A stretch of 49,795 nt of DNA from an uncultured Clostridia bacterium (GCA_947627335.1 CANQVQ010000001.1:1-49795), one strand, 5' to 3'. Numbered from the stretch's first letter, positions 13,781-49,795 are shown. The notes: generated by a model not told the origin, from the letters alone. Made by a program: numbers and translations.

Positions 13781-13809
13781 TTGCAATTCGGATGAAATTA
13801 TGGTATACT
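13781..13809 (+). promoter_or_regulatory. dnaA promoter
   Basis: TTGCAA-17 nt-TATACT with a TGg extended -10. It lies inside the ORF-track extension, which supports ATG 13849 as the true start. Confidence 0.7.
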
Positions 13810-13848
13810 GTTATGAACAAATCTGACAATGGGGGTGTATCCGACTCG

Positions 13849-15192: not shown

Positions 15193-15298
15193 AATAGGGA
15201 AAGTTTCGGTCATAATTTTTTCGACTTCTCCTTTGTTTTTTCCGCCGGGACGGCGGCAACATTCGGTTCTTCGGTCCGCCGGAGGATTTTGGCGGGAA

Positions 15299-15470
15299 TG
15301 TGGACAAAAACGGGAAAGCTGTGGAAAACTCCCCCGGTTTTCCCGCGGGACGGGAATCGGTTGTCCACACCGAAAAGCAAGGCGGGACAAGTGGTTCGAG
15401 GGGTTTTCCACAAAATCCGCCCGCCTACTACTACGACTACTACTTCCATATACCTAAAAGGTTTCTTCGT
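15299..15470. other. oriC core: DnaA boxes, GC cluster, DnaA-trios, AT-richer unwinding stretch
   Basis: Boxes: TGTGGACAA 15299-15307, TGTGGAAAA 15320-15328, TTGTCCACA 15361-15369, TTTTCCACA 15404-15412, each 1 mismatch from TTATCCACA. GC cluster CCGCCCGCC 15417-15425. CTA CTA CTA CGA CTA CTA CTT at 15425-15445, then CCATATACCTAAAAGG. Confidence 0.75.
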
Positions 15471-15540
15471 GGGTGTACGCGCACGAAGCGAACCCCTGAA
15501 AACAGAGAACGCAAAAAGGAAAGGATGAAAACAAGAAATC

Positions 15541-16677: not shown

Positions 16678-16689
16678 GTCGGGAACGCC

Positions 16690-17792
16690 ATGCGGATCAG
16701 GGAACTGACGCTCCAGCAGTTCAAGAACGCGGCGACGGAAACGTTGCCGTTCGCGGACGGGGTGAACGTCATCTGCGGAGAGAACGCCTCGGGGAAGACC
16801 AATCTGCTCGAAGCGATGTTCTTTTTCGCCGCCGGAAAGTCATTTCGGGGCTGTAAGGACCGGGAACTGATCCGTTTCGGCGAGGAGGAAGCCCGCGTGG
16901 AGCTGAAATTCCTTCGCGGGGAGGACGAATGCGTGGAATCCCGCATGGGCGTGTGGCTCCGCAAGGCGCAGAAGCGGCAGATTTCGGTGGAAGGGCAGCC
17001 GGTCCGTCGGCTGGCGGAGTATCTCGGGTTGTTTCGGGCGGTCATTTTCACGCCGGACCACCTGCATCTGGTGAAGGGTGCGCCGGAATGTCGGCGGCGG
17101 TTCCTCGATCTGGCGATCTGCCAGTCCTTTCCGCGGTACGCCGCGTCCGCGCAGGAGTACGGGCGGCTTTTGCAGCAGAAAAACGCGCTGCTGCACAGCG
17201 AATCCCCCGACCGAAAGCTGCTGGAAGTCTACCACGAACGAATGGCGGTCGCCGCCGCCGTGATTACGCTCAATCGGTTCCGCTACCTCGAAACGCTCGC
17301 GAAAGAGGCGCAGGAAGTGCAGAAGGAGATGTCCGGCGGGAAGGAACTGCTGGAACTGCGGTACTTTTCGCAGGTCGCGCCGAAGGAGGAGCGGACGGCG
17401 GAGGAACTGCGGGACGCGTATTTTACGCTGTTTCAGACCCGTCTGGACGCCGAACTGAAGCGGGGAACGACGCTGTTCGGTCCGCAGAAGGACGATTTCG
17501 CGGTGTATATCGACCGCAAGAACGCCAGGATCTTCGGTTCGCAGGGACAGCAGCGGTCGGCGGTGCTGGCGCTGAAGCTGGCGGAAGGGGAGCTGTCCCG
17601 CCGTCTGACCGGGGAGTACCCGGTGTTCCTGCTCGACGACATTCTTTCGGAGCTTGACGCCGGACGGCGAGGGTATATCCTCTCCCATCTCGCGGGGCGG
17701 CAGGTGATCCTGACCGGCTGCGAGCCGGAATTGCCGGAAGCGGGGGTATCCAACCGCATTCTGGTCCGAAACGGGGAAGCGACGGTGCTGTG

Positions 17793-17793
<1 letters not shown>
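16690..17793 (+). CDS. recF: DNA replication/repair protein RecF
   Basis: 367 aa with Walker A GENASGKTNLLEA, signature SQGQQRS and Walker B FLLDDILSELD. Confidence 0.95.
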
Positions 17794-20038
<2,245 letters not shown>

Positions 20039-20090
20039 GCCGGACGCATAAGCCGGGCAAGGACCCAAACCGCAAGGAAAGGACAGTATC

Positions 20091-33978: not shown

Positions 33979-35904
33979 ATGAAAACAATGAGCAAAAAAC
34001 AGCGGAAGATGCTGGTTCGCATCCTCGTCGCGGGGGGGATATTCCTGCCGCTGCTGGCGCTGGAGATCACCGGCGTCAGCGAGGCGTGGCCGTGGTATAT
34101 CGCGCTTCCGGTCCATGTGGTCCCGTACCTGATCGTCGGGTATGACGTGCTTCGGAAAGCGGTGCGGAATATCTGTCACGGGCAGGTATTCGACGAGAAC
34201 TTCCTGATGTGCCTCGCGACGGTGGGCGCGATCGCCGTACAGGAGTACCCGGAAGCGGTCGAAGTCATGCTGCTCTTCCAGATCGGCGAGCTTTTGCAGG
34301 GCGTCGCCGTCGGCAAGAGCCGTCGTTCGGTCAGCGACCTGATGGACATTCGCCCGGACTACGCGAACGTGGAGCGGAACGGCGAATTGCAGAAAGCGGA
34401 CCCGGGTGACGTGCAGGTCGGGGAGATCATTCTTGTCAAGCCGGGCGAGAAGATCCCGCTCGACGGCGTCGTGGTCGAAGGGACCAGCAACCTCGACACG
34501 GCCACGCTGACCGGGGAATCCCTGCCGCGTCCGGTCTCGGCGGGGGACGAATTGATCTCCGGCTGCGTCAACATGAACGGTGCGCTCCGGGCACGCGTGA
34601 CCAAGCCGTACGGCGAATCGACGGTCGCACGGATCCTGGACCTGGTGGAGAACGCTTCCTCCGCGAAGGCGAAGAGCGAGGGGTTCATCACCCGGTTTGC
34701 GCGGTACTATACCCCGGCGGTGGTGGTGCTTGCGGTCCTGCTGGCGGTGGTCCCGCCGCTGTTTCTGGGGGATTGGTCGACGTGGGTGCGGCTCGCGCTG
34801 ACCTGCCTTGTGGTCTCCTGCCCGTGCGCGCTCGTGATCTCGGTGCCGCTGACCTTTTTCGCCGGCATCGGCGGGGCGGCACGCAAGGGGATCCTCGTCA
34901 AGGGCGCGAACTGGCTGGAAGAGCTTGCCAAGGTGCAGACGGTCGTGTTCGACAAGACCGGCACGCTGACGAGCGGTCGGTTCACGGTCACGGTCGTCCA
35001 CCCGGACCATATGTCCGAACAGGAACTGCTCTCCCTCGCCGCGACGGCGGAATGCTACTCCGATCACCCGATCTCCCTCTCGCTCAAGCAGGCGTATAAG
35101 AAGGAGATCGACCGCACGCGGGTGTCCTCCGTCGAGGAACTCGCCGGGCGGGGCGTCTGCGCGGTCATCGACGGGAAACGGGTGCTGGTCGGCAACGAAC
35201 GGCTCATGGAGGAGCAGTCCGTCACGCGGACGCCCTGCTGTCACGGACAGCATCGCGGTACGCTGGTGCACGTCGCGGTGGAGGGCGTATATGCCGGACA
35301 CGTCGAGATCTGCGACGAACTCAAGCCGGACGCGGTGGACACGATCCGCCTGCTGCGTCCGCGCAGGACCGTCCTGCTGACCGGCGACCACGCGACGGTC
35401 GGGGAGGAAGTCGCCGCCCGGCTCGGCGTCGACGAGGTGCATTGCGATCTGCTGCCGGCGGATAAGGTCGCCCGCGTGGAGGAACTGCTGCGGCAGAAGA
35501 GCGCGTCCTCTTCGCTTGCGTTCGTCGGCGACGGCATCAACGACGCGCCCGTGCTGTCCCGTGCGGACGTCGGGATCGCGATGGGGGCGCTCGGTTCGGA
35601 CGCCGCGATCGAAGCGGCGGACGTCGTGCTGATGGACGACAGACCGTCGAAGGTCGCGACCGCGATCCGCGCTTCCCGCCGGACCCTGCGCATCGTGCGG
35701 GAGAACGTGGTGTTCTCGCTCGCCATCAAGATCGGCGTTCTCGCCGCGGAGGTCGTCATGACCATCGTCGGGCTCGAAAGCAATATGACGCTCGCGGCGT
35801 TCGCCGACGTGGGCGTGCTGGTGCTGGCCGTCCTGAACGCGACGCGTGCGCTGCGGGTCAAACCGGCGGAAAACCTCCGCGAAAGGAAGGAAAAAACGGC
35901 GTGA
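33979..35904 (+). CDS. Heavy-metal (Zn/Cd-type, P1B) translocating P-type ATPase
   Basis: 641 aa. CPC in SCPCALVISVP, DKTGTLT phosphorylation site, TGD, GDGINDAP hinge. No fused N-terminal HMA domain. Confidence 0.92.
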   Translation: MKTMSKKQRKMLVRILVAGGIFLPLLALEITGVSEAWPWYIALPVHVVPYLIVGYDVLRKAVRNICHGQVFDENFLMCLATVGAIAVQEYPEAVEVMLLFQIGELLQGVAVGKSRRSVSDLMDIRPDYANVERNGELQKADPGDVQVGEIILVKPGEKIPLDGVVVEGTSNLDTATLTGESLPRPVSAGDELISGCVNMNGALRARVTKPYGESTVARILDLVENASSAKAKSEGFITRFARYYTPAVVVLAVLLAVVPPLFLGDWSTWVRLALTCLVVSCPCALVISVPLTFFAGIGGAARKGILVKGANWLEELAKVQTVVFDKTGTLTSGRFTVTVVHPDHMSEQELLSLAATAECYSDHPISLSLKQAYKKEIDRTRVSSVEELAGRGVCAVIDGKRVLVGNERLMEEQSVTRTPCCHGQHRGTLVHVAVEGVYAGHVEICDELKPDAVDTIRLLRPRRTVLLTGDHATVGEEVAARLGVDEVHCDLLPADKVARVEELLRQKSASSSLAFVGDGINDAPVLSRADVGIAMGALGSDAAIEAADVVLMDDRPSKVATAIRASRRTLRIVRENVVFSLAIKIGVLAAEVVMTIVGLESNMTLAAFADVGVLVLAVLNATRALRVKPAENLRERKEKTA

Positions 35905-37223
35905 AAACCGTCAAACTGCGGATCCTTTCCCTGTTTTCCCTGCTGCTCGCGCTGCTGTTCGGTCTGCGGAGCCTGCCAGCGCTGCACGCCGCGGACCGAA
36001 CGCCTGCAAAGCGGGCGGACGCGGTGCTGGAAGCGCTGGGGGCGGAACTGCCGCCGGACGTGGATCGGGCGTTCCTGCAATACGTCGGAAAAACCTACGG
36101 CGCGGACGTGCTGGACGAACTGGCGGAAAAAACGACCTATACGGACGGCGTGTGGGACGAACTGACCGGCAATTCCCTGCACGTCCTGCGCTCGCTGTAC
36201 CGCGAGGAACCGACGAACGCGGACAACGTCCGCCTGCTCAGCACCGGGGAGCGCGGGACGCGGAAAACCACCGTCATGACCTTCGGCGGGGACATCTGTT
36301 TTGCGGATAACTACGTCGTCATGCAGCACTTGAAAACCACGGAAAACGGGCTGTTCGACTGCATCGACCCGCGTTGGGCGGACGAGATGCGTGCGGCGGA
36401 CATCGCCGTGCTCAACAACGAATTCTCTATCTCCGACCGGGGCGCGCCGCTCTCCGGCAAGATGTATACCTTCCGGGCGGACCCGTCGCACACGTCGCTT
36501 TACGGCGAACTCGGGGTGGATTTCGTCACCCTCGCGAACAACCACGCCTTTGACTTCGGGAGGGACGCGTTCCTCGACACCATGGATTCCCTGCGGGAGA
36601 ACGGCGTGGATTACGCGGGCGGCGGACGGAACGCCGAAGAGGCGCAAAGACCGTTCTATTACCTCGTCAACGGGCGAAAGATCGCGTTCGTTTCCGCGAC
36701 GCGTGCGGAAAAGAACATCATGACCCCGGAAGCGGGGACGGATTCTCCCGGCGTGTTCCGCTGTTACGACCCGGAACGGCTCAAGCAGGTCCTCGCGGAG
36801 GCGAAGTCGTGCAGCGATTACGTCGTGCTGTTCGTCCATTGGGGGACCGAACATACCGACGTGCTCGAGCCGGTCCAGAAGACCACCGCCCACGAATACA
36901 TCGACGCAGGCGCTGACCTGATCGTCGGCGCCCACGCGCACCAGCTGCAGGGCATCGAGTTCTACAAGGGGAAGGCGATTTTCTACAATCTCGGCAATTT
37001 CTGGTTCGACGATCACGAGGACGTCGAAACCGGATTGGTCCGCTTGGAGCTTTCGCCGGACGGCGGGGAGACTTTCCGGTTCCTGCCGGGCGTGCAGACC
37101 GACTGCAAAACCTCCTACGAGTGCGGCACCGTGCGGGGACGCGAGGTGCTCGACCATCTCGCCGGCTATCTGCCGGGCATCCGCATCGACGACGACGGAC
37201 GGGTCACGCCCGCGGACCCGTAA
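35901..37223 (+). CDS. CapA-family (PGA_cap, metallophosphatase-fold) secreted protein
   Basis: 440 aa. GTG start overlaps the ATPase stop (GTGA). Signal peptide, and motifs FGGDICF, TLANNHAFDFG, VHWGTEH, GAHAH. Confidence 0.85.
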   Translation: MKTVKLRILSLFSLLLALLFGLRSLPALHAADRTPAKRADAVLEALGAELPPDVDRAFLQYVGKTYGADVLDELAEKTTYTDGVWDELTGNSLHVLRSLYREEPTNADNVRLLSTGERGTRKTTVMTFGGDICFADNYVVMQHLKTTENGLFDCIDPRWADEMRAADIAVLNNEFSISDRGAPLSGKMYTFRADPSHTSLYGELGVDFVTLANNHAFDFGRDAFLDTMDSLRENGVDYAGGGRNAEEAQRPFYYLVNGRKIAFVSATRAEKNIMTPEAGTDSPGVFRCYDPERLKQVLAEAKSCSDYVVLFVHWGTEHTDVLEPVQKTTAHEYIDAGADLIVGAHAHQLQGIEFYKGKAIFYNLGNFWFDDHEDVETGLVRLELSPDGGETFRFLPGVQTDCKTSYECGTVRGREVLDHLAGYLPGIRIDDDGRVTPADP

Positions 37224-37234
37224 AAACGCAAAAA

Positions 37235-37277
37235 GGCGATCGATTAGCCGGTTCGGCGGTCGGTCGCCCCTTTTTTT
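37235..37277 (+). terminator. Strong intrinsic terminator after capA
   Basis: Long GC-rich stem 37235-37268 (a few G:U pairs) followed by T7. Confidence 0.85.
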
Positions 37278-37310: not shown

Positions 37311-37339
37311 TTGCAATTCCCGAACGGATATGCTATAAT
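37311..37339 (+). promoter_or_regulatory. Promoter of the cotH-VTC-DUF4956 operon
   Basis: TTGCAA-17 nt-TATAAT with a TGc extended -10. Confidence 0.7.
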
Positions 37340-37406
37340 ACAACGTCTTTGAAACCTTTGGATTTTCTTGGAATTTTTGCGGAATGCGGAGGGAGGCGCG
37401 TCGCGG

Positions 37407-40400
37407 GTGCGCGGGTGGAAAAAACACGAAACCGGGATCATTCTGCTGCTTGCGGTGGGTCTGCTTGCCGTCGTCGCCGTCGGTCTGGCGGTCGATCGGT
37501 ACCGCACCGTGACGGACGTCGTTCCGGGGAATGCGGAGGAAGTGGACCTGCTTATCACGGAGGTCTGTGCGAAGAACACGTCCATTGTGGAGGACGGCGG
37601 CGGGAAGCACGCCGATTATATCGAAATTTACAATCGCGGGGACGACTGCGACCTCGAGGGCTTTACCCTCTCCGACGGCAAGCAGAATTCCGAGCCGTTC
37701 GGTCCGACGCCGTTCGCGAGCGGGGAATACAAGGTCTTTTTCGTCGGGCGGGAGAGCATGGGATTCTCCCTTTCCGCGTCGGGCGGGGAGACGATCACGC
37801 TTCGCAACCGCGACGGGACCGTTGCGGCGCAGGTGACGACGGTCTCCATGCTGGAGGACCAGGTCATGCTCTGGAACGGGGCGGGCTACGAGCTTTCCGA
37901 CGCTCCTTCCCCCGGTTTCCCGAACACGAAAGAGGGCAGCCTCGCGTTTCTGCAGGGCGAGCCGGACGAAAACCCGTCCGTGACCGTCAGCGAGCTGCTG
38001 GTCAGCAATCGAAGCTCGCTGCCGGATGAAAACGGCGTCTTTTGCGACGTCGTGGAGCTTTGCAACCTGACGGACGCGCCGGTTTCGCTGGGCGGGTACT
38101 ACCTGTCCGACCGAAAGGAGAACCGCTTCCGCTACGCCCTGCCGTCGGTGACGCTGCCGGTCGGCGGATACCTCGTCGTGTTCTGCGACAGCGGTTCGGC
38201 GGTCCCGTCGGACGGGCAGCCGCACACGGGTTTCGGGCTTTCCGTCGGAGAAACGCTGTATTTGACCTCGCCGAGCGGAAAATATGTGTCGGTCGAGGTG
38301 CCGAGCCTGCCGGACGACCGTTCGCTCTCGCTGACGGACGGCGGCTACGCCGAAAGCCCGGTCACGCTGGGCTTCCCCAACGACGAAACCGGGGAAGCGG
38401 CGTTCCTGAACGGCCGCATCGATGCGGATTCCCCGCTGGTCATCAGCGAACTGCTGCTCGCGGGGGACGGCACGCCGGTCGGCGGTGCGCTTTGCGACGC
38501 GGTCGAGATCTATAACCGTTCCGCCGAGTCGGTGGACGCGTCCGCCTGGCATTTGACCGACGGCGAGGACCTGCTCCGTTACACGCTGCCCGCACGCACG
38601 CTTGCGCCCGGGGAATACCTCGTGCTGTACTGCGACCGGCAGAGCGGAGAGGGGCATACGGGCTTCGGGCTGTCCGTCGGGGAGACGGTGCGGCTGGTCT
38701 GCCCGGATTTTCGGTACAGCGAACCTGTGACCTGCGTTTCCGCCGGGGACGGCAAGTCCCTGCGGCGGGAGGAGGACGGCGGCGAAGTCGCCTACCGTTC
38801 CGGCGAGGTCACGATGGGCTTTGCGAATACGGAGGACGGCGCGAAGCAGTTCGCCGCGTCCGTTTCGCCGGCGGAGCTGCGCATTTCGGAGGCGCTCGCC
38901 AGCAACACCAAAACCCTGAAAGGTCCGTACGGGACCTGCTGCGACTGGGTGGAGCTGTGCAACGTTTCCGATCAGCCCATCGACCTTTCGGGGTGGTACC
39001 TGTCCGACGACCCGGACGAACTGCGGCAGGGGGCGCTCCCCGCCCAGACGGTCGAACCGGGCGAATATTTCGTGGTATTCCTGAGCAAAACGACCGAAAA
39101 CCTGCTTTCCGGCTACCCGGTCCTGCCGTTTGCGCTCTCCTCGGAGGGCGATCGGCTCTACCTGTCGCACGAGAGCGGCGGGACGCTGACCGTGGCGGAC
39201 AGCGTCGTGCTTCCCGGTCTGCCCGCGGACGTTTCCTACGGTCGCCCGCAGGGGGAGGACGGGTTTTCCGCCCTCGCCGAACCCTCTCCCGGGAGCGCGA
39301 ACGGCGGGTCTGCCGCGCTGTCTGCCGCGCCGACCGCCGTGACCGCGCAGGGCGTCTATAACGGCGTCGACGGGCTGGACGTGGTGCTGACCGGGTCCGG
39401 TCCCATTCATTACACGCTCGACTGCTCCGAACCGACGGTTTCTTCGCCGGTGTTCGACGGGAGCATTCGCCTGACGAAAACCACGGTCGTCCGTGCGATC
39501 TGCTGCGAACCGGGCAAGATGCCCAGCCGCACCGTCGATCTGACCTACCTGCTCAACGAGGGGCATACCCTCCCGGTCGCGACGCTGGTGACGACGCCGG
39601 AGAACCTGTGGGATTACTACACGGGCATCTATGTGGAGGGACCGGGCGCGGAAGCGGAATTTCCGCACGTCGGGGCGAATTACTGGCAGACGTGGGAGAA
39701 GGAAGCGACGGTTTCGCTGTTCGAGACGGACGGAAGCGGATTCACCTCCCCCTGCGGGATCCGCATCTTCGGGGCGTACTCCCGTGCGTTGGCGATGAAG
39801 TCGTTTTCCTGCTTTTTTCGGGCGTCCTACGGGAATTCCGCCCTGCGGTACCCGCTGTTCGGGGAGGACGGGTTGGACACATACGAAGCGTTTCTGTTCC
39901 GCAACACCGGGCAGGACTATGCCAAGGCGCGTATGCGCGACCCCCTGCTTGCCGACCTCATTTCGCGGGAAACCGACGTCGCGGTCCAGAAGAACCGCCC
40001 GGTCGTGCTCTATCTGAACGGCGAATTCTGGGGGGTTTACTACATTCGGGAAAAGATCAACGAAAATTACGTCGCCGGGAACTACAACGTCGATCAGGAG
40101 CAGGTCGATCTGACCCGTGCCAACGGCACGACCAGCAAGGCGTATCAGGAATTGATCGCCTATGTGCGCGGACACAATCTTTCCGATCAGGAAGCGTACG
40201 ATTACGTCGCTTCGCAGGTGGACATCGACGAGTATATCGATTACATCATCGCGGAGATCTACATCGCCAACACCGACAACGGCAACATCAAGTTCTTCCG
40301 TGTGACCGGGGGCAAGTGGACGTGGATCTTCTACGACGTCGACCAGTCCTTCCGCTCGGCGGACTTCAACACGGTCGCCGAACACCTCAACCCGAACGGC

Positions 40401-40736
40401 ACCGGCTCGATGGACCGGTTTTCGACCACCCTGATCAACGGGCTTCTGCGCAATTCCGGCTTTCGCGAGCAGTTTTTGCGCCGATTCGCGTGGCAGATGA
40501 CGAACGTGTGGGCGGCGGACAAGGTGGTCGCCGCCGTCGACGCGTACGAGCAGGCGATCCTGCCGGAGATGCGGCGGGACTGCGAGCGCTGGGATCTGAG
40601 CTTTTCGGATTGGCAGGCGCAGGTCGAGGGCGTGCGCAGCTTCGCACGGCGGCGCGGACAGTACGTTCTTTCCCATTTGAAGGCGTATTTTTCGCTTTCG
40701 GAGGACGATCTGCGGACATACGGGTTCCCCGTTTGA
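37407..40736 (+). CDS. Membrane-anchored CotH-family atypical kinase with four lamin-tail (LTD) domains
   Basis: Start placed at GTG 37407 (GGAGGGAGG 10 nt upstream; the ORF track begins at TTG 37368). N-terminal TM anchor. Four LTD repeats of the form I[ST]E...D[YWV][IV]E[IL][YC]N...LSD, a CHB_HEX_C-like domain, and a C-terminal CotH region from about 39570. Confidence 0.85.
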   Translation: MRGWKKHETGIILLLAVGLLAVVAVGLAVDRYRTVTDVVPGNAEEVDLLITEVCAKNTSIVEDGGGKHADYIEIYNRGDDCDLEGFTLSDGKQNSEPFGPTPFASGEYKVFFVGRESMGFSLSASGGETITLRNRDGTVAAQVTTVSMLEDQVMLWNGAGYELSDAPSPGFPNTKEGSLAFLQGEPDENPSVTVSELLVSNRSSLPDENGVFCDVVELCNLTDAPVSLGGYYLSDRKENRFRYALPSVTLPVGGYLVVFCDSGSAVPSDGQPHTGFGLSVGETLYLTSPSGKYVSVEVPSLPDDRSLSLTDGGYAESPVTLGFPNDETGEAAFLNGRIDADSPLVISELLLAGDGTPVGGALCDAVEIYNRSAESVDASAWHLTDGEDLLRYTLPARTLAPGEYLVLYCDRQSGEGHTGFGLSVGETVRLVCPDFRYSEPVTCVSAGDGKSLRREEDGGEVAYRSGEVTMGFANTEDGAKQFAASVSPAELRISEALASNTKTLKGPYGTCCDWVELCNVSDQPIDLSGWYLSDDPDELRQGALPAQTVEPGEYFVVFLSKTTENLLSGYPVLPFALSSEGDRLYLSHESGGTLTVADSVVLPGLPADVSYGRPQGEDGFSALAEPSPGSANGGSAALSAAPTAVTAQGVYNGVDGLDVVLTGSGPIHYTLDCSEPTVSSPVFDGSIRLTKTTVVRAICCEPGKMPSRTVDLTYLLNEGHTLPVATLVTTPENLWDYYTGIYVEGPGAEAEFPHVGANYWQTWEKEATVSLFETDGSGFTSPCGIRIFGAYSRALAMKSFSCFFRASYGNSALRYPLFGEDGLDTYEAFLFRNTGQDYAKARMRDPLLADLISRETDVAVQKNRPVVLYLNGEFWGVYYIREKINENYVAGNYNVDQEQVDLTRANGTTSKAYQELIAYVRGHNLSDQEAYDYVASQVDIDEYIDYIIAEIYIANTDNGNIKFFRVTGGKWTWIFYDVDQSFRSADFNTVAEHLNPNGTGSMDRFSTTLINGLLRNSGFREQFLRRFAWQMTNVWAADKVVAAVDAYEQAILPEMRRDCERWDLSFSDWQAQVEGVRSFARRRGQYVLSHLKAYFSLSEDDLRTYGFPV

Positions 40737-40755
40737 ACCGGAAAGGAGCATTCGC

Positions 40756-41430
40756 GTGGCAACCAGACACGAGGAGAAGTTCCTCATTGACTACCGGCAG
40801 TACGTCCTGCTCCGCAGCCGTGCGGAAGCGGCGATGCGACCGGACGAACACGCCCCGGACGGGAGCTACCTGATCACGTCCCTCTACTACGACGACCGGC
40901 GGGACAGTGCGCTGGACGAAAAGCTGGACGGCGTGCGGGTGCATACGAAGTACCGCGTGCGGACCTACGGCGCGGACGGGGATTTCATCCGGCTGGAACG
41001 CAAGGTCAAGCGTGGGATCATGACCGAAAAGCACAGCACGTCCCTGCGAAGGGAGCAGATCTCCCTGTTGAGCGACCCGGCGACGGCGCTCGAAACCTTC
41101 TCCGGGCGGGGATTGGTCATGGCGGCGGATATGCGGTCGCGTGGGCTGCTGCCGTCCGTGACCGTCCGCTACCGGCGGGACGCGTTCGTCTATCCCGGGA
41201 CCGACACCCGCCTGACGTTCGACACGCATATCGAGGTGCTTCCGCCGACGGAAGACCATCTGTTCGATTCGTCCGGCGCGGGCATTCCCGCCCTGCCGCC
41301 GCAAACCGTGGTGATGGAGGTCAAGTACGGGGAGTACCTGCCCGCGTTCGTGCGGAAGCTCAGCGCCGTCTGCGGCGGGATGCAGCTTTCCGTTTCCAAA
41401 TATGCGCTTTGCCGGACCGTCTGGCACTGA
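40756..41430 (+). CDS. VTC-domain (triphosphate-tunnel / polyphosphate-polymerase-like) protein
   Basis: 224 aa. GTG start with GAAAGGAG 7 nt upstream. N-terminal RHEEKF (R-x-E-x-K tunnel strand), YYDD, and RxRxY strands typical of the VTC/CYTH fold. Confidence 0.8.
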   Translation: MATRHEEKFLIDYRQYVLLRSRAEAAMRPDEHAPDGSYLITSLYYDDRRDSALDEKLDGVRVHTKYRVRTYGADGDFIRLERKVKRGIMTEKHSTSLRREQISLLSDPATALETFSGRGLVMAADMRSRGLLPSVTVRYRRDAFVYPGTDTRLTFDTHIEVLPPTEDHLFDSSGAGIPALPPQTVVMEVKYGEYLPAFVRKLSAVCGGMQLSVSKYALCRTVWH

Positions 41431-41457
41431 ATCTGAAGAGAAAGGAATACAATCGTC

Positions 41458-42126
41458 ATGAGTTTTGCGGATACGATCAAAAAAAGCGTTCTGGAGGGGT
41501 TCCAAACGGACATCAGCGCGGCCCGCGTGGTGCTGTCGCTGCTGTTTTCCCTGGTCGCGGCGCTCTTTATCCTGCTTGTCTACCGTCTGACGATGCGGGG
41601 CATCGCCGCCAGCCGCGGTTACGAGATCACCCTGCTTCTGGTGACGTCGATCAGCGCCATGATCGTGCTGACGATCACGTCCAACCTCGCGCTGTCGCTC
41701 GGCATGGTCGGCGCGCTCTCCATCGTGCGCTTCCGCACGGCGCTGAAGGAATCGTCGGACACGGCGTTCATGTTCTGGTGCGTCGCCGCGGGGATCACGT
41801 CCGGGGCGGGCTTCTACCTGATCACGCTTATCGGCTGCCTGTTCATCGGACTGGTCGCGCTCATTGCGTCGCGGCTGACCCGCAACGGGGCGCGCCCGTA
41901 TCTGCTCGTGATCCGCACGGAAGCGGAAAACACGGCGGCAAGCGTCGAAAAACTGCTCGCGGAGAACCACGTCCGCCGTCGCCTTTCCTCCCTTGTGCAG
42001 AACGACCGCTACGCGGAAATCATCTACGAGATCAGCGTTTCCGCCGCCCAGCAGCGTCTGGTCGCCGCCGTCCGTACCCTGCCGGGCGTGACGACGGTCT
42101 CCCTCGTGGATTGCCGGAATTCCTGA
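41458..42126 (+). CDS. DUF4956-family integral membrane protein
   Basis: 222 aa with about 4 TM segments and an SIVRFRTALKESSDTAFMF motif that I associate with DUF4956. It is the usual partner of bacterial VTC-domain genes. Confidence 0.75.
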   Translation: MSFADTIKKSVLEGFQTDISAARVVLSLLFSLVAALFILLVYRLTMRGIAASRGYEITLLLVTSISAMIVLTITSNLALSLGMVGALSIVRFRTALKESSDTAFMFWCVAAGITSGAGFYLITLIGCLFIGLVALIASRLTRNGARPYLLVIRTEAENTAASVEKLLAENHVRRRLSSLVQNDRYAEIIYEISVSAAQQRLVAAVRTLPGVTTVSLVDCRNS

Positions 42127-42148: not shown

Positions 42149-42177
42149 TTGACAGGGTGGGTCCGGCGTGGTATACT
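42149..42177 (+). promoter_or_regulatory. oadB promoter
   Basis: TTGACA-17 nt-TATACT with a TGg extended -10. Confidence 0.7.
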
Positions 42178-42233: not shown

Positions 42234-43334
42234 ATGCAGTTTCTCTACGAAACCGCCGCCCAGCTCACATGGCAGCAGTTGGTGATGTTCGTCATCGGCG
42301 GCGTGCTGATTTTCCTTGCGATCAAGAAGGATATGGAGCCGACGCTGCTCCTGCCGCTCGGGTTCGGGACGCTGCTCGTCAACATCCCGAACGTGGACGC
42401 GATCCTGCCGAACGGCGCGCTGACGACGCTCTACAACGCCGGGATCGCCAACGAGCTGTTCCCGCTGCTGCTGTTCATCGGGATCGGCGCGATGATCGAC
42501 TTCGGACCGCTGCTGTCGAACCCGAAGCTGATGCTGTTCGGCGCCGCCGCGCAGTTCGGTATCTTCTTCACGCTCTGCACCGCCTCCATGTTTTTTGACC
42601 TCAAGGACGCCGCCTCCATCGCCGTCATCGGCGCCGCGGACGGACCGACGTCCATCTTCGTCGCCAATACGCTCGGCAGCCAGTACACCGGCGCGATCAT
42701 GGTCGCCGCCTACTCGTATATGGCGCTCGTGCCGATCATTCAGCCGCCGTTCATCCGCCTGCTGACGACCCGCAAGGAGCGCATGATCCGTATGCCGTAC
42801 CAGCCGAAGGAGGTTTCCAAGCGGACGCGGATCCTGTTCCCGATCGGGATCTTCCTGCTGACGGCGCTGGTCGCTCCGTCCGCCGCGTCGCTGGTGTTCT
42901 TCCTGATGTTCGGCAACCTGATCCGTGAATGCGGGGTGCTCAATTCCCTGTCGGAAACGGCGCAGAAGGTGCTCGCGAACCTCGTGACCATCGTGCTGGG
43001 CATCTCCATCGCGACGCAGATGCAGGCGGAGAGCTTCCTGCGCCCGGAAACGCTGCTGATCCTCGGGCTGGGGCTGTTCGCGTTCATCTTCGACACGGTC
43101 GGCGGCGTGCTGTTCGCAAAGTTCCTCAATCTGTTTTTGAAGAAGAAGATCAACCCGATGATCGGTGCGGCGGGCATCTCGGCGTTCCCGATGTCCGGGC
43201 GGATCGTCCACAAGATGGGGCTGAAGGAGGACCCGCAGAACTTTCTGCTGATGCACTCCATCGGCGTCAACGTCTCCGGGCAGATCGCGTCCGTCGTCGC
43301 GGGCGGGCTGATCCTCAGCCTGATCCCGCATTAA
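42234..43334 (+). CDS. Sodium-ion-translocating decarboxylase beta subunit (OadB/GcdB/MmdB family)
   Basis: 366 aa. Motifs IGAADGPTSIF, YSYMALVPIIQPP, NPMIGAAGISAFPMSGR, GVNVSGQIASVVAGG. Confidence 0.9.
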   Translation: MQFLYETAAQLTWQQLVMFVIGGVLIFLAIKKDMEPTLLLPLGFGTLLVNIPNVDAILPNGALTTLYNAGIANELFPLLLFIGIGAMIDFGPLLSNPKLMLFGAAAQFGIFFTLCTASMFFDLKDAASIAVIGAADGPTSIFVANTLGSQYTGAIMVAAYSYMALVPIIQPPFIRLLTTRKERMIRMPYQPKEVSKRTRILFPIGIFLLTALVAPSAASLVFFLMFGNLIRECGVLNSLSETAQKVLANLVTIVLGISIATQMQAESFLRPETLLILGLGLFAFIFDTVGGVLFAKFLNLFLKKKINPMIGAAGISAFPMSGRIVHKMGLKEDPQNFLLMHSIGVNVSGQIASVVAGGLILSLIPH

Positions 43335-43985: not shown

Positions 43986-46900
43986 ATGAGCAAGTTCAGC
44001 ACAACCAAGAGATGGATCGCATTGCTGATGGCTATCGCTATGCTGACGGGCATTCCGATCGCTACCGGCGCATTTTCCGCGAAAGCGGATTCCCTGCGGT
44101 TCACGGAAACCGACGTCATGCCGGAGATCCACAAGGGTCTGGGCAATCTGCTGCCCGACGCCCCGCTTGCGCAGGAACCGGCGCCGGACGACGTGGTCCG
44201 TGTATCGATCGTTCTGGAGGATACACCCACGCTGCAGAAGAAGTATTCCACCATCGGCATCGCGGAAAACGCGGAGGCGATGGCGTATAGCGCTTCTCTG
44301 CGCGAGAAGCAGAGTTCGGTGGAAAGCGTTATTCAGCGCGACGTCCTGGAGGGAAAGCAACTGGACGTGGTGTGGAATCTGACGCTTGCCGCCAACATCA
44401 TCTCCGCAAACGTCGCGTACGGCAGGGTCGACGCGATCAAATCCGTTTCCGGCGTCAAGGACGTCGTTTTGGAAACGCAGTATGCGCCTGCGGTGGTGAA
44501 TGACGATCTGCCTGCCGACCCCAACATGGGCACTTCTTCCGCTCAAATCGGTTCTCCTGCCGCTTGGGCCGGGAAGTACTACGGTGCGGGCAGCAAGGTC
44601 GCGATCATCGATACGGGTATCGATACGAACCACCAATCCTTCGACGCGGAGGCGTATGCGTACGCGCTCGAACAGCATGAAGTGACGGAGAAGCAAAAGG
44701 AATCCATGCTGACGGAGGAAGAGGTTCAGACGCTGCTTAGTCAGCTGCATATCGCGAACATTGCCGATCCGGAACGGATCTTCGTTTCCGATAAGATCCC
44801 GTTCGCGTTCAACTATGTGGACGAAAACCACAACATCACCCACGATACCGACGAACAGGGCGAACACGGTTCCCACGTCAGCGGTATCGCTGCGGCAAAC
44901 GCCTATATCCCGCAGGGCGAAGGCTTTGCTCCCGCGTTGGACGCGGTCAAGACGCAGGGCGTTGCGCCCGATGCGCAGATCCTGACCATGAAGGTCTTCG
45001 GGTCCAGCGGCGGCGCCTATGATTCCGACTATATGGTCGCGATCGAGGACGCGATCCTGCTGGGTGCGGATTCCGTCAACCTGTCGTTGGGCTCTGCGGC
45101 GCCCGGTTTCAGCAACAGCGGCATCTATGAGGAAGTCCTCAACGACCTGATGGTCAACAGCGACACGGTCGTCACCATGTCCGCCGGCAACAACGGTTAC
45201 TGGGCGGAAAATTCCGAAGTCGGCAACCTGTTCGGCGACGACGTGAGCTTCCACACCGGCGGTTCGCCCGGAAGCTTCACGAATTCCCTCGCGGTCGCGT
45301 CCGTGGACAACGTCGGTCGTACCGATTATTATGTCCGCGTGGGCGACGACATGGTTTTCTATACCGATACCAACGCCAACTACAGCAAACCCGGTCTGGC
45401 GTCCATCGCCGGCGACGAGGCGTATCCGTTCGTCTACCTCGACACGGTCGGTATCCATACGCAGGCGCTCGGTTCGCTGACGAGGACGCTTGAGAACCAG
45501 CTCGAAAAGCTGGATGCGCAGTTGATCGCGAACGGCGACGCGGACGGTCTGGAAGGCAAGGTCGTCCTTGTCAACCGTGGTATTTCCAGCTTCGCGCTCA
45601 AGTGCTCCGCCGCTGCGACGCTCGGCGCTGCCGCCGTGATCATCGTGGACAATGCGCCGGGCAGCACCATCAACATGGATCTGACCGATTACACCGGTCA
45701 GGTGCCCGCCGTTGCCATTTCCATGGAGGACGGCGAACTGTTCCGTGCCGGCGGCATTGCCGGAACGGTCGGCGTTCTGTATGACAACACCGGTGCGAGC
45801 AGCCCGTGGGATGCGCCCTACTACACCGGCGAACTCTACATTTCCGCGGAAGTCGGCTCCACCGACAGCGAAGCGGACCCGGATAATCGCTACACGATGT
45901 CCAGCTTCTCCTCCTGGGGCGTTCCCGGCTCTCTGGTCATGAAGCCCGAGATCACCGCTCCCGGCGGAAACATCTATTCCGTCAACGGCGCGGTCGCCAG
46001 CGGCGACGCGTACGAGAATATGTCCGGTACCTCCATGGCGGCGCCGCAGGTGACCGGTATGGTGGCGGTCGTTGCGCAGTACATCCGCGAGAACGAGGCG
46101 AAGTTTGAAAACGTGGATTTCGCGCAACGTCGCGCACTGATCAACAGCCTGCTGATGTCCACTTCCACGCCGGTCATCGCGGAGGACGGCAGCTACTACT
46201 CCATTCTCAGCCAAGGCTCCGGTCTTGCCAACGTCGGTGCGGCGATCCAGGCGCAGGCGGTCATCCAAATGGCGGACGACGCTACGGCGTCCTATGCCGA
46301 CGGCAAGGTCAAAGTCGAACTCGGCGACGACCCGACGAAGGAAGGCATCTACTCGTATTCGTTCCGGATCACCAACGTGGGCGATTCGGACGGCGACTAT
46401 GTGCTCTCCACCGATATGTTCACGCAGGATCTGTATACCGAATACGGCTACACCTGGCTGGACACCGCGACCACGAAACTGGGCGCGACGGTCAGCTACA
46501 CGGTCGACGGCGAGCCTGTGGCGCAAACGCTGGAAGCCGACTTCAACCTCGACGGCTTGACCGATGCGCGTGACGCGCAGGACCTCCTCGATTACCTTTC
46601 CGGCAACGGCAAGGTCGAGCCTGCGAAGGTCAGCACGACGGCGGCCGATCTGGACGGCGACGGCAAACTGACGACCTACGACGCGCATCTGATCCTTGCC
46701 GGGATCGGCGAGCACGTCAAAGTGGCGGCAGGCGACACCGTCACGGTCGAAGTCACGATCGAAGTGAACAAAGCCCAGCTTTCCGCTTATGAAAACGGTG
46801 CGTACGTCGAAGGTTACACCTTCGTGACCGCCGTCCCGGACGCGGAAGGCGTGCAGGACGTGGAGTATTCCATCCCGATCCTCGGTTTCTACGGGAATTG

Positions 46901-49795
46901 GAGCGAACCCTCCATGTTCGACCGTACCAACTATCAGGAATCCGTCGATTCCATCATCTATGGGCATGACAGCGGAAACGTCCCGTATAACAGCGATACG
47001 GCGATGTCCAACGTCCTGCTCTATAAGGACAGCAACACCAAGGCCGAAGACGGGAAGCTCATTAACCCGTTCTATATGTACGGTCTGGAAGACCTCGGCG
47101 GTTTCGACTTCTATGATACCGACGCGACGCGTACCGCGATCAAGAGCAGCGACACGCTGGTCGGCTATGAGTACGCTCTGATCCGCAATGCGTATGTTGC
47201 GGCGGTCATCGAGGACGCCGAAGGCAACGTCCTCAGCGTCACGGCGCCTGCCGAGACGAACAGCGGATTCTACTACACCAACGGACAGGTTTGGCAGTCC
47301 CTCGTCTCCACGCTGGGGATCAACCAGAAGGTTTCCTCGCTCGAACTCGACGAAGGCGAAAGCTTCACCGTCAAGCTGGTTGCACTGCCCGAATACTACT
47401 TCGCGGATGCGCTTGCCAACGGCGCGGAAGGCGAGCCGGTCAACACCGTCACCGCGGAGGAGTTTAAGGATGTTTACGATCTGACCGAAATCGGGGATGG
47501 CGCGGTCCTTTCCACGACCATGACCATCGACGACACCAAGCCGGAAATGAGCAACGCACGCAGACGGATGCTCAGCGGCGACCTGGAAGTCACGGTGCAG
47601 GATAACCGTCACATCGCGTTCGTCAGCCTGATGACGACGGACGGCGCCTCGTACGTCGACTGCGTCCTTCCGGAGCAGACCGAGGCGGGTCAGGAATGCG
47701 TCGTCACCTTCCCGTGGGACGAGGTCGAGTACCTTGTCGGCAGGACCGGCGAAAGCAAGGTCATGATCTATATCGCCGACTACGCGGAGAACGTCCATGC
47801 GTATATCATCGATCTGGAAACGGAAGAGTTCGACGAAGTGGCTCCCACGTCGATCGAGCTTCCGGCGGAAGTCCACGTCTTTAACGGCGGCGTTTCCAGC
47901 GTCACGCCGACGATCCTCCCCTCGATCCTGACCGCGTCCGATCTGAACTGGTCGGTCGATACGCCCGAAGTCGCCAAGGTGGACGAATTCGGAAACGTCA
48001 CGGGTCTCAGCGTCGGCGAGGCGACCCTCACCGCCGCTTCCAAGAAGGATCCTTCGATCAACGCGACCTCCAAGATCGTCGTCAAGGATGCGCCGAGCAT
48101 CGATCTCGCGGGCATGGTCTTTGACAAGGACGGCGAGACGCAGTGGAGCACCTTCAATCTGCAGGATCCCAGCCAATTCCAGCAAGTCGCAGCGGGTCCG
48201 AGACTTTTCGCGGGCGACTATGCGCTTGACTTCCAAACGATGTACGGGCATGACGGGACCAACGTCTGGCGGGTGAATATGAACACCTTCGAGCAGACGT
48301 CCCTGTTTGCCATGAATCCCGTGTACCTGTTCCCGGACGCGGCGGTGAATAACTACTTCGCGGCGTACACCGCGGGCAATTACGCGCTCCTTGCGCCGCA
48401 GGCGAACAGTGCGGTCCTGATGATCCTTCTGCCGGAATCGGGCAACCTGTACACGGTCGATCTTTCGAGTGCGCTTCCCAGCAACATCTGCGCTATCGCG
48501 TTCAGCGGAATGAGTTCCGCAAATCGTCGCGACTACTATTATATGCTGCTGGAGAACGGCGACCTGTATCAGATCTATCTGTCGTCCACCGGAAGCCTCG
48601 GCTACGGTCAGGTCGGCAACGTCGGAATGACCTTCGACGGCGCCGCCGCTGCGGACGGCTCTTCGGTCACGTCCATGATGTACAGCTTCACCGCAAGGGA
48701 TGCGCTGTATCCCGACGGCATGACCGAACCGCTGCTCCTCGCTCACTACAAGGATGGGGACAGCACCGCATATCTCTCCCTCATTGAAATCACCTTTGAC
48801 GACGTCACGGGCGACATCGCCTTCTGCGGGATCGCGGGGTCGATGCCCTTCGGCGACGAGGTCTGGCCGGTCAGCGCTCTGTACGATCCCGAAATGATCG
48901 AACCGGCTGACGATGGACACGCCGTGCACGCACTTGCGGAATACACGGTCGCAAACAACCTGTCCGAAAAGATGTCGATGGTCGCTCCGAAGACCGAAAG
49001 CAACGCGATCGTGGTCGACGGAAAGACCGAAAGCGGTGACTACGACGTGGTGGATGTGAAGAACAACACCGTCACGATCGAAATTTCCGCCGACGCGTCC
49101 ACCAACGGTTTGGTGAATGTCTCCTACCCTGCCGAGCTGTCTCTGGTCAGCGTCGAAGGGTTGGTCGATTACTATGCGAACGCCACCGCCGGGGACGGCA
49201 CCGTCGTATTTGCGTACGCCGACGCCGATTCCCTGAACCGCCCGGTCACGAAGCTGGTCTTCTCCTATGAGGAAGCGGACGAGTTGAAACTGGTTGGGAA
49301 GACCGTCGATGTGACGACCGTCGAAGACGGCAAACCCGGCAAGGCGGAATCCGTCGAGAGCGTCCCGTTGACCTTTGCGGCGGAGAGCTTCAAGCTCGAC
49401 GTTCAGGTGACCGACGGCACCCACGACGCACCGAATACCGTCACCGAGGGCGTGGAAGTTTCCTTCACGATCAGCGCAAACGAAGGCTACAAACTGCCCG
49501 ACAGCATCACCGTCACCATGAACGGTGAGGAAATGGATCCTGCGAACTACACCTACGACCCCGTAACCGGCGAAGTGACGCTGCAGAGCGATTACATCAC
49601 CGGACCGATCGTCGTCACCGCGTCCTGCGTCTACGTCCCGAAGACCTTCACGGTCAGCGCGACCGTGGAGAACGGCAGCACGGATGCGCCGGCGACGGCG
49701 ACCGAGGGCGAGGAAGTTTCCTTCACGATCAGCGCGAACGAAGGGTACAGACTGCCCGAGAGCATCACCGTCACGGTGAACGGCGAAGCGATCAC
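43986..49795 (+). CDS. Very large secreted S8 (subtilisin/lactocepin-like) serine peptidase, 3' end beyond the window
   Basis: AAAGGAAGG RBS and a signal peptide. Catalytic triad: D in VAIIDTGID, H in HGSHVSGIAA, S in SGTSMAAPQVTG. PA-like insert, dockerin-like pair, Big_2-like domain and C-terminal tandem repeats. There is no stop before 49795. Confidence 0.9.
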   Translation, partial: MSKFSTTKRWIALLMAIAMLTGIPIATGAFSAKADSLRFTETDVMPEIHKGLGNLLPDAPLAQEPAPDDVVRVSIVLEDTPTLQKKYSTIGIAENAEAMAYSASLREKQSSVESVIQRDVLEGKQLDVVWNLTLAANIISANVAYGRVDAIKSVSGVKDVVLETQYAPAVVNDDLPADPNMGTSSAQIGSPAAWAGKYYGAGSKVAIIDTGIDTNHQSFDAEAYAYALEQHEVTEKQKESMLTEEEVQTLLSQLHIANIADPERIFVSDKIPFAFNYVDENHNITHDTDEQGEHGSHVSGIAAANAYIPQGEGFAPALDAVKTQGVAPDAQILTMKVFGSSGGAYDSDYMVAIEDAILLGADSVNLSLGSAAPGFSNSGIYEEVLNDLMVNSDTVVTMSAGNNGYWAENSEVGNLFGDDVSFHTGGSPGSFTNSLAVASVDNVGRTDYYVRVGDDMVFYTDTNANYSKPGLASIAGDEAYPFVYLDTVGIHTQALGSLTRTLENQLEKLDAQLIANGDADGLEGKVVLVNRGISSFALKCSAAATLGAAAVIIVDNAPGSTINMDLTDYTGQVPAVAISMEDGELFRAGGIAGTVGVLYDNTGASSPWDAPYYTGELYISAEVGSTDSEADPDNRYTMSSFSSWGVPGSLVMKPEITAPGGNIYSVNGAVASGDAYENMSGTSMAAPQVTGMVAVVAQYIRENEAKFENVDFAQRRALINSLLMSTSTPVIAEDGSYYSILSQGSGLANVGAAIQAQAVIQMADDATASYADGKVKVELGDDPTKEGIYSYSFRITNVGDSDGDYVLSTDMFTQDLYTEYGYTWLDTATTKLGATVSYTVDGEPVAQTLEADFNLDGLTDARDAQDLLDYLSGNGKVEPAKVSTTAADLDGDGKLTTYDAHLILAGIGEHVKVAAGDTVTVEVTIEVNKAQLSAYENGAYVEGYTFVTAVPDAEGVQDVEYSIPILGFYGNWSEPSMFDRTNYQESVDSIIYGHDSGNVPYNSDTAMSNVLLYKDSNTKAEDGKLINPFYMYGLEDLGGFDFYDTDATRTAIKSSDTLVGYEYALIRNAYVAAVIEDAEGNVLSVTAPAETNSGFYYTNGQVWQSLVSTLGINQKVSSLELDEGESFTVKLVALPEYYFADALANGAEGEPVNTVTAEEFKDVYDLTEIGDGAVLSTTMTIDDTKPEMSNARRRMLSGDLEVTVQDNRHIAFVSLMTTDGASYVDCVLPEQTEAGQECVVTFPWDEVEYLVGRTGESKVMIYIADYAENVHAYIIDLETEEFDEVAPTSIELPAEVHVFNGGVSSVTPTILPSILTASDLNWSVDTPEVAKVDEFGNVTGLSVGEATLTAASKKDPSINATSKIVVKDAPSIDLAGMVFDKDGETQWSTFNLQDPSQFQQVAAGPRLFAGDYALDFQTMYGHDGTNVWRVNMNTFEQTSLFAMNPVYLFPDAAVNNYFAAYTAGNYALLAPQANSAVLMILLPESGNLYTVDLSSALPSNICAIAFSGMSSANRRDYYYMLLENGDLYQIYLSSTGSLGYGQVGNVGMTFDGAAAADGSSVTSMMYSFTARDALYPDGMTEPLLLAHYKDGDSTAYLSLIEITFDDVTGDIAFCGIAGSMPFGDEVWPVSALYDPEMIEPADDGHAVHALAEYTVANNLSEKMSMVAPKTESNAIVVDGKTESGDYDVVDVKNNTVTIEISADASTNGLVNVSYPAELSLVSVEGLVDYYANATAGDGTVVFAYADADSLNRPVTKLVFSYEEADELKLVGKTVDVTTVEDGKPGKAESVESVPLTFAAESFKLDVQVTDGTHDAPNTVTEGVEVSFTISANEGYKLPDSITVTMNGEEMDPANYTYDPVTGEVTLQSDYITGPIVVTASCVYVPKTFTVSATVENGSTDAPATATEGEEVSFTISANEGYRLPESITVTVNGEAI
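49421..49795 (+). repeat. In-frame tandem repeat, 258-nt (86-aa) period, in the protease C-terminal region
   Basis: ACCGAGGG...GAAGTTTCCTTCACGATCAGCGC.AACGAAGG at 49443/49455 recurs at 49701/49713. The peptides TEGVEVSFTISANEGYKLPDSITVT and TEGEEVSFTISANEGYRLPESITVT correspond. Confidence 0.85.

Follow-up and report, generated by a model that had tools for sequence, protein, structure and literature searches.

In this study we examined three adjoining genes in a 49,795-nucleotide (nt) stretch of DNA from an uncultured Clostridia bacterium (GCA_947627335.1 CANQVQ010000001.1:1-49795; hereafter the window), which encode a CotH-type atypical kinase, a VTC-type triphosphate-tunnel protein and a membrane protein of the DUF4956 family. 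The tunnel protein has conserved counterparts of the residues that Vtc4 requires for polyphosphate (polyP) synthesis, supporting its assignment from sequence as a Vtc4-type, catalytically competent enzyme, and the trio was found to be a functional module that is kept together beyond chance in Bacillota and Actinomycetota. We tentatively propose, as a possibility somewhat short of being probable, that the three genes make up a single envelope module which combines polyP synthesis, coupling by the DUF4956 protein and use at the surface by CotH. An earlier note on this DNA had stated that no function had been assigned to the trio, which was too strong, as the set has been reported as accessory to pel loci (bioRxiv 10.1101/768473) and mutant phenotypes were described in Streptococcus intermedius (PMC12345266). 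The trio itself is already in the literature, its observation is confirmed here and its interpretation partly supported; since the gene set was published before, what is new is limited to the mechanistic reading, the evidence that the bacterial proteins retain the active site of Vtc4, and the wide distribution of the module, which often occurs apart from pel.

The features of the trio, with positions counted from the first nucleotide of the window, are:
37407 to 40736, + strand: gene for the CotH protein, with four LTD repeats, a CHB_HEX_C domain and a CotH domain (mechanical open reading frame (ORF) 37368-40736, from TTG 37368)
37434 to 37493, + strand: predicted N-terminal signal anchor GIILLLAVGLLAVVAVGLAV, hydropathy 3.1
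37518-37907, 37941-38297, 38412-38678 and 38835-39197, + strand: four LTD repeats (Pfam LTD 8.4e-44, four stretches)
39372 to 39548, + strand: CHB_HEX_C_1/Fn3_assoc domain, residues 669-727 (Pfam 6.1e-10 and 5.4e-10)
39759 to 40667, + strand: CotH atypical kinase domain, with catalytic Asp D970 (40275-40277) and metal-binding Asp D990 (40335-40337) as assigned by alignment
40756 to 41430, + strand: 224-amino-acid VTC-type triphosphate-tunnel protein, candidate polyphosphate polymerase, with the Shine-Dalgarno sequence AAAGGAG upstream
41458 to 42126, + strand: 222-amino-acid DUF4956 membrane protein (PF16316, 4e-10)

The tunnel protein and the Vtc4 active site

The VTC protein matches its Pfam family nearly from end to end (PF09359, 2.2e-31, model positions 2-234 of 235). 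VTC was the only Pfam domain found across the 224 amino acids, and neither an SPX domain nor a transmembrane (TM) segment was detected, in keeping with the earlier note, in which the product was read as a soluble tunnel protein; the N-terminal RHEEKF pointed out there is present as well (MATRHEEKF). Single-sequence searches of the PDB gave nothing useful for any of the three trio proteins, and profiles were needed. The AlphaFold2 model of the VTC protein had a mean predicted local distance difference test score (pLDDT) of 87 and a predicted template modelling score (pTM) of 0.86, and when it was compared with PDB structures by Foldseek the top 13 fold matches were all Vtc4, Vtc3 or Vtc2, the best being Vtc4 (3g3q, E = 3e-12, TM-score 0.72) at a sequence identity to Vtc4 of 18-19%. 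Generic tunnel enzymes ranked after the Vtc proteins, with ygiF first at 4.5e-8. Members of the family carry the NCBI name "polyphosphate polymerase domain-containing protein", and the family comprises 7,664 clusters (50% identity) at E <= 1e-3 and 716 at E <= 1e-30.

It was demonstrated that polyP synthesis by Vtc4 requires K200, R264, R266, K281, Y359, R361, S457, K458 and the Mn2+ ligand E426, and that K458 is the only required residue which is replaced in the inactive Vtc2 and Vtc3 (bioRxiv 10.1101/2023.01.27.525886). With the sequence and residue numbering of Vtc4 confirmed against the PDB, counterparts of these nine residues were assigned in the window protein as K8, R67, R69, K83, Y139, R141, S214, K215 and E188. 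In a profile alignment Y139, R141 and R152 pair with Vtc4 Y359, R361 and R373; in a pairwise alignment R67, R69 and K83 pair with R264, R266 and K281, and E188 and K190 with E426 and K428. K8 (RHEEK-F versus TTK200-Y) and S214-K215 (SVSKY versus FS457K458F) were placed by the fit of motif, secondary structure and spacing only. Each of the nine is invariant across 18 diverse homologues from bacteria, of about 35% identity. Synthesis of polyP by this protein is somewhat more probable than not.

It could also be argued that the tunnel protein is a metalloenzyme other than a polymerase, for instance a triphosphatase, nucleoside triphosphate hydrolase or cyclase, that signals to the DUF4956 protein or energises it. 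Enzymes of the tunnel fold catalyse diverse reactions, and the model has significant fold matches to ygiF, to thiamine triphosphatase and to class IV cyclases. Identity to Vtc4 is only the 18-19% given above, and the protein has neither an SPX domain nor a Vtc1-type partner. However, the end-to-end Pfam match is to VTC and not to CYTH, Vtc4, Vtc3 and Vtc2 occupy all of the first 13 places among the fold matches, and the nine Vtc4 residues have conserved equivalents, that of K458 by motif and spacing only. We therefore hold a non-polymerase chemistry to be quite improbable and continue with the Vtc4-type assignment.

A subset of the bacterial VTC homologues (P0247, P0249 and P0352) was seen to bear N-terminal extensions of 140-400 amino acids that are rich in Lys, Arg and Glu. 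No Pfam domain was found in these extensions, which look disordered, and no Rosetta-stone fusion of VTC with DUF4956 or CotH was seen among the longer homologues.

The CotH kinase and the DUF4956 membrane protein

The first gene of the trio likely starts at GTG 37407 and not at TTG 37368, since a GGAGG sequence (37392-37396) lies 10 nt before the GTG and the orthologues begin there with M-H-G-W-K; the residue numbers of the CotH protein used here, D970 and D990 among them, are counted from the TTG. The CotH domain covers residues 798-1100 (Pfam CotH 1.7e-45). A profile built from 11 trio-linked CotH domains matched Bacillus cereus CotH (5jd9) at 3.6e-18, with D970 and D990, both invariant in the 11 sequences, aligned with FTQNFDG and PWDYD. 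By alignment these two residues correspond to D228 and D251 of Bacillus subtilis CotH, mutation of which inactivates the kinase (PMC7821199).

The hydrophobic segment GIILLLAVGLLAVVAVGLAV is preceded by Arg, Lys and Lys and followed by a net acidic stretch, and because of this charge distribution the protein is predicted to be oriented N-in and C-out, with the kinase domain outside the membrane, which supports the view of the earlier note that the CotH protein is anchored and outward-facing. An N-terminal anchor or signal was also called in 26 of the 27 full-length orthologues from Oscillospiraceae, the only exception (L001) being an ORF with an over-extended start, and in the distant loci L033, L034 and L037. 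The CotH protein of S. intermedius was likewise stated to be outside the membrane (PMC12345266). The four LTD repeats were recovered as internal repeats when the protein was searched against itself with phmmer (residues 51-180, 192-310, 349-437 and 490-610), so that the CotH and LTD domains listed in the earlier note both stand; the list had missed the CHB_HEX_C_1/Fn3_assoc domain, a module known from the C-terminal region of chitobiases and hexosaminidases, which here matches the beta-hexosaminidase 6q63 in the PDB at 6.8e-6.

Since many Oscillospiraceae form spores, a spore-coat function like that of Bacillus CotH has to be weighed, and membership of the CotH family together with the intact active site would be in its favor. 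Spore-coat CotH proteins carry neither an N-terminal anchor nor a signal, whereas the window protein has a predicted membrane anchor and the extracellular-type domains LTD and CHB_HEX_C. In addition, the promoter-like site upstream of the trio fits the sigma-70 consensus, no cotG or cotB was found near the trio in the window, and the trio occurs in bifidobacteria, Enterococcus and Nonomuraea, none of which form endospores. It is also present in non-sporulating streptococci (PMC12345266). Taken with these observations, a role in the spore coat is highly improbable, and a surface location of the CotH kinase is the reading that we retain.

The DUF4956 protein scored 40.1 bits against PF16316 (cut-off 30.6), 21 of 21 aligned homologues also matched the family, and with this all four Pfam families named in the earlier note were recovered by hidden Markov model (HMM) searches. 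Its structural model, which is of low confidence, has an N-terminal amphipathic helix, about five TM helices, in line with the polytopic protein foreseen in the earlier note, and a C-terminal beta-alpha-beta-beta-alpha-beta domain. The meaningful Foldseek matches of this low-confidence model were ACT domains and the C-terminal domains of MgtC proteins, 2lqj (2.8e-3) and 7qa5 (2e-2). In sequence searches the NCBIfam MgtC/SapB model PRK09977 gave 3.7e-8 but 33 bits against a cut-off of 214, Pfam MgtC gave 0.011, which is below the family cut-off, and some DUF4956 members carry the JGI name YhiD. Together these sub-threshold matches suggest that the DUF4956 protein is a remote relative of MgtC/SapB with an ACT-like C-terminal domain. 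Among 12 diverse homologues of 28-39% identity an invariant core was found, G85-A-L-S-I-x-R91-F-R93-x-A-x-K97 ... F106-W107, and from the positive-inside rule the basic loop R91/R93/K97 and a second loop with R43/R47/R53 would both lie on the cytoplasmic side, which is also the side of the VTC protein.

Conservation and genomic context of the trio

A scan of one genome per species yielded 37 loci encoding a VTC relative, and further samples consisted of five loci from a plasmid collection and eight diverse VTC homologues that were looked up on their contigs. The DUF4956 gene lies immediately downstream of VTC in 37/37 genome loci, and by tblastn an LTD-CotH gene was placed upstream of VTC in 33 of the 37; at the three most distant loci, of an Erysipelotrichaceae metagenome-assembled genome (MAG), an Acidaminobacteraceae MAG and Acidaminobacter, Pfam detected CotH beside the pair, sometimes after it. 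One locus (L018) starts at a contig edge and was left out of the CotH count, leaving 36 evaluable genome loci, and CotH is adjacent in all 36, in 4/5 plasmid-collection loci and in 7/8 contigs. The VTC-DUF4956 pair was seen in every genome locus, every plasmid-collection locus (5/5) and every contig (8/8), so that in total VTC and DUF4956 are adjacent in 50/50 loci and accompanied by CotH in 47/49 evaluable ones. The co-occurrence beyond chance that had been anticipated for the trio was thus borne out.

When all ORFs of the 37 loci were clustered, only VTC, DUF4956 and CotH were conserved, the next family being present in 10 loci. The order of the genes is not fixed, as CotH may precede the pair (CotH-VTC-DUF4956) or follow it (VTC-DUF4956-CotH) and a two-component system may be inserted, and the flanking genes are unrelated between lineages, while start and stop codons overlap within the trios of several genomes and VTC and DUF4956 overlap by a few bases in some. 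The trios of the plasmid collection belong to Planococcus, Pseudobutyrivibrio, Nonomuraea (Actinomycetota) and Enterococcus faecalis, and in Enterococcus a two-component system stands between DUF4956 and CotH. As the linkage is kept despite the shuffled order and the unrelated flanks, the trio is a functional module and not a chance association.

Several neighbors of the trio at other loci were recorded on the side. An OmpR-family response regulator and a histidine kinase lie beside VTC-DUF4956(-CotH) at L034, L037, L044, L045, L046, L047 and L050, all outside Oscillospiraceae, and the best NCBIfam matches of these two-component systems include PhoB/PhoR-like models, all far below the cut-offs. 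At L033 (4629-7217, the Erysipelotrichaceae MAG) a protein with Y_phosphatase3 and dockerin domains is encoded directly after the trio and could be an extracellular phosphatase partner for an external kinase. At L052 (3009-4976) a NAGPA (phosphodiester glycosidase) gene and a GT2/GtrA gene are found divergently upstream of the LTD-CotH-VTC-DUF4956 trio, and this hints at sugar-phosphodiester chemistry.

Genes for cotH, a polyphosphate polymerase and DUF4956, together with DUF4832 or with a diguanylate cyclase (DGC) and phosphodiesterase (PDE), were reported to adjoin pelDEADAFG in streptococci, clostridia and bifidobacteria (bioRxiv 10.1101/768473), and in the work on S. intermedius the authors stated that they had not found it beyond such loci (PMC12345266). 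Our survey contradicts the latter claim, as stand-alone trios, that of the window included, are common across the sampled taxa. The Clostridium perfringens locus NELoc-2 (PMC2879425), which is associated with necrotic-enteritis strains, and a Planococcus plasmid operon both have VTC-DUF4956-CotH, and in both the trio is followed by genes for a protein of 690 amino acids, a protein with HEAT repeats and a glycosyltransferase of family GT2 that is chitin-synthase-like; judged by gene position and size, the "tubulin/FtsZ" membrane proteins of NELoc-2 would be DUF4956 proteins. In Pseudobutyrivibrio the trio of pNP95 is embedded in a glycosyltransferase-rich locus. The recurrent context of the trio is surface polysaccharide synthesis.

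The window itself covers the chromosomal origin region of a gut bacterium of the Oscillospiraceae, known as a metagenome-assembled genome, and its closest relatives are MAGs of Oscillospiraceae or Clostridia. That it spans oriC is concluded from the coincidence of a dnaA-dnaN-recF-gyrB-gyrA set (13738-22610) with the minimum of the cumulative GC skew at about 14-16 kb. The trio lies near oriC between housekeeping genes, in the order CotH, VTC, DUF4956 and all on the + strand, with the following signals around it:
37235 to 37277, + strand: intrinsic terminator behind the upstream gene PGA_cap, 5' limit of the unit
37311 to 37339, + strand: promoter-like site of sigma-70 type, -35 TTGCAA, 17-nt spacer, extended -10 TGcTATAAT
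42149 to 42177, + strand: promoter-like site ahead of OAD_beta (42234-43334), the gene that follows, 3' limit of the unit

The terminator consists of a 34-nt hairpin (37235-37268) followed by U7, with a folding energy of -23.4 kcal/mol and z = -2.9 versus shuffles, and the relatives have a hairpin and T-run at the same place. In the promoter-like site before the trio 10/12 consensus positions match and the TG motif is present, and its -35 and -10 are invariant in the relatives L001, L003 and L004. Gaps of 19 nt and 27 nt lie within the trio, a Shine-Dalgarno sequence is present in each of them, and the VTC and DUF4956 ORFs (40756-42126) share a reading frame, with one stop codon and 27 nt between them. 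The arrangement described in the earlier note, of one promoter behind a strong terminator and three tightly spaced genes, was therefore found as claimed. Downstream, the site at 42149-42177 (TTGACA, 17 nt, TATACT) has 11/12 matches and TG. Judged from the sequence, the signals around the trio fit a single transcription unit.

The trio's neighbors in the window are a P-type ATPase, PGA_cap and OAD_beta. The PGA_cap/CapA-like protein (35901-37223, + strand), directly upstream, has a hydrophobic, signal-peptide-like N-terminus. Both PGA_cap and OAD_beta were considered as members of the unit and rejected, because a terminator and a promoter intervene and the adjacency is lost beyond close relatives: PGA_cap adjoins the trio only in the closest relatives (6 loci), and OAD_beta likewise only in the closest relatives. 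No pel or other polysaccharide genes were found within the 49.8-kb window, antisense and alternative-frame ORFs at the locus had no Pfam match, and an Rfam search of the leader and operon detected no riboswitch or other RNA family. Further away two giant surface proteins are encoded on either side: one of 2231 amino acids with VWA_2 and three DUF7601/DUF5979 repeats (5443-12138, - strand), and an S8 subtilase of at least 1936 amino acids (43986-49795, + strand), which has PA, dockerin and Big_2 domains as well as a signal peptide and continues past the end of the window.

A tentative mechanism and its relation to known systems

In the mechanism that we propose, the cytoplasmic Vtc4-type tunnel enzyme would make polyP or a related phosphoanhydride from ATP at the membrane. 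The MgtC-like DUF4956 protein would anchor the enzyme and may let the polyanion cross to the outside, with the outside-positive membrane potential as the driving force. On the outer face the CotH kinase, either membrane-anchored or released if its anchor is cleaved, would extend on its four LTD domains and hexosaminidase-type C-terminal module, and would phosphorylate a surface polymer or protein or load it with polyP. By analogy the target of CotH is likely to be a cell-surface glycan or matrix component, because the same trio sits inside exopolysaccharide loci elsewhere. The product of the VTC protein is proposed to serve CotH since an extracytoplasmic enzyme of kinase fold has no ATP supply, and since CotH is almost always co-encoded with a cytoplasmic enzyme for a phosphoanhydride polymer and a membrane protein; outward export is proposed because a polyanion that left the cytoplasm for the positive side would move in the same orientation as into the yeast vacuole. 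We also infer a complex of the VTC and DUF4956 proteins as well as the phosphoryl donor and substrate of CotH. Export of polyP through DUF4956 is doubtful, and the use of polyP by CotH is more doubtful still. That a third bacterial polyP synthase, of VTC type, and an MgtC-like protein supply the surface CotH, with a donor or by attachment, for the modification of exopolysaccharides or surface proteins must be regarded as distinctly speculative.

Several points weigh against such a mechanism. No kinase of the protein-kinase-like fold is known to use polyP as a donor, and our literature search found no paper in which a bacterial member of the VTC family was assayed. The HMM alignment of the C-terminal Vtc4 segment with the VTC protein was not significant, so that the match of S214-K215 to S457-K458 continues to stand on motif and spacing, and the equivalence of K8 and K200 likewise lacks a significant alignment. 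The DUF4956 partner is not a known channel; its profile found no match at E <= 10 among all PDB chains, Vtc1, Vtc3 and Vtc4 included, and its structural model has a pLDDT of 65 and a pTM of 0.45. Its MgtC relatives are known as regulators and not as transporters (PMC12345266, discussion). Of the split analogue of eukaryotic VTC envisaged in the earlier note, the Vtc4-type tunnel protein thus stands by its residues and fold, while the membrane partner shows no similarity to the Vtc1/Vtc4 channel, and since no transport activity is known for the MgtC family, "split analogue" can mean only a non-homologous partner. At two loci the pair occurs with no CotH gene, in Paenibacillus (L045, 9458-11356), where it is followed by a Cthe_2159 carbohydrate-binding protein, and at L049 (9382-10527), where it is found with a 7TM-GGDEF diguanylate cyclase and a GDSL lipase. 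Furthermore, in S. intermedius deletion of the DUF4956 gene raised Pel and more than halved the aggregation seen in sputum medium, deletion of CotH lowered both Pel and aggregation, so that the two shift Pel in opposite directions, and deletion of the VTC gene (SIR_1593) had no reported phenotype (PMC12345266). The silent VTC mutant argues against a strictly linear supply from VTC to CotH.

Many of these findings would also be accommodated if nothing were exported, and if VTC and DUF4956 made or regulated polyP, or the balance of ATP and phosphate, at the cytoplasmic face in the manner of MgtC, with CotH acting outside on another donor and the three linked through a joint tuning of surface polymers. 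The remote relationship of DUF4956 to MgtC/SapB with its ACT-like regulatory domain would suit this explanation, as would the action of MgtC on ATP synthase and phosphate signalling (cited in PMC12345266), the opposite Pel shifts next to a silent VTC deletion, the diguanylate cyclase that takes the place of CotH at L049 and the bifidobacterial loci with DGC/PDE (bioRxiv 10.1101/768473), and the frequent adjacency of OmpR-family two-component systems. However, it leaves unexplained both the source of the phosphoryl donor for an extracytoplasmic kinase and the presence of CotH with the pair in 47/49 evaluable loci from two phyla, and the invariant basic motif of DUF4956 and the overlapping stop and start codons suggest a physical complex. 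We consider this explanation unlikely, though not greatly so, and keep the coupled envelope module as our working proposal.

Reviews divide polyP synthesis between a prokaryotic PPK and a eukaryotic VTC route (for example PMC12526157). The trio may represent a third, "eukaryote-type" bacterial route to polyP, and this reading challenges the division and is easy to test. A large bacterial VTC family that keeps counterparts of the Vtc4 active-site residues, is always paired with one membrane protein and is almost always linked to a secreted kinase suggests an overlooked polyP route and a way to energise extracellular chemistry; if true, the proposal would describe an ATP-independent phosphorylation system outside the membrane and would for the first time give the fold of the MgtC superfamily a molecular function. 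Because the module is common in gut Clostridia and is also found in biofilm (Pel) loci and in NELoc-2, it could bear on matrix assembly, aggregation and interaction with the host. The small size of the proteins, the predicted solubility of the VTC protein, a CotH ectodomain that could be produced free of its anchor and a defined set of residues for mutation make the hypothesis directly testable.

Among known systems, the pel accessory genes of S. intermedius (SIR_1594/1593/1592) encode the same three families contiguously, with a CotH that is secreted or anchored, and their DUF4956 protein was described as an MgtC-TM plus ACT protein (PMC12345266). In contrast to that set, the window trio adjoins no pel or polysaccharide gene, and its CotH carries four LTD and a CHB_HEX_C domain and not an FN3 domain. 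The NELoc-2/Planococcus operon has the same trio in the order VTC-DUF4956-CotH and differs in its downstream synthase genes, which are absent at the window locus. The spore-coat Ser/Thr kinase CotH of Bacillus (5jd9/5jda) has the same type of atypical kinase domain, with both catalytic Asp residues in common, but it lacks a signal or anchor, and its substrates are CotB and CotG in the mother cell (PMC7821199), whereas the window protein is anchored, predicted to face outward, multi-domain and linked to VTC and DUF4956. The MgtC/SapB/YhiD proteins appear to resemble DUF4956 in the region of the core motif, in length and in an ACT-like C-terminal domain; DUF4956 differs in having its own invariant RFRxAxK motif and in always being paired with VTC, and its matches to these families fall below their cut-offs.

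The eukaryotic VTC complex, in which Vtc4 with Vtc3 or Vtc2 and Vtc1 couples the polymerase to a translocation channel, has the same catalytic fold as the window tunnel protein, with Vtc4 as the best structural match and a residue for each polymerase position, including the one that discriminates active from inactive subunits (three by motif and spacing only). A soluble tunnel domain is here likewise paired with a small polytopic membrane protein, and by analogy the product would leave the cytosol for a compartment on the exoplasmic, positive side. Unlike its eukaryotic counterpart, the bacterial tunnel protein has no SPX domain and is not fused to a membrane domain, its membrane partner is the MgtC-like DUF4956 protein and not a protein of the 3-TM Vtc1/DUF202 type, and the bacterial set adds a third, extracytoplasmic partner, the CotH kinase.

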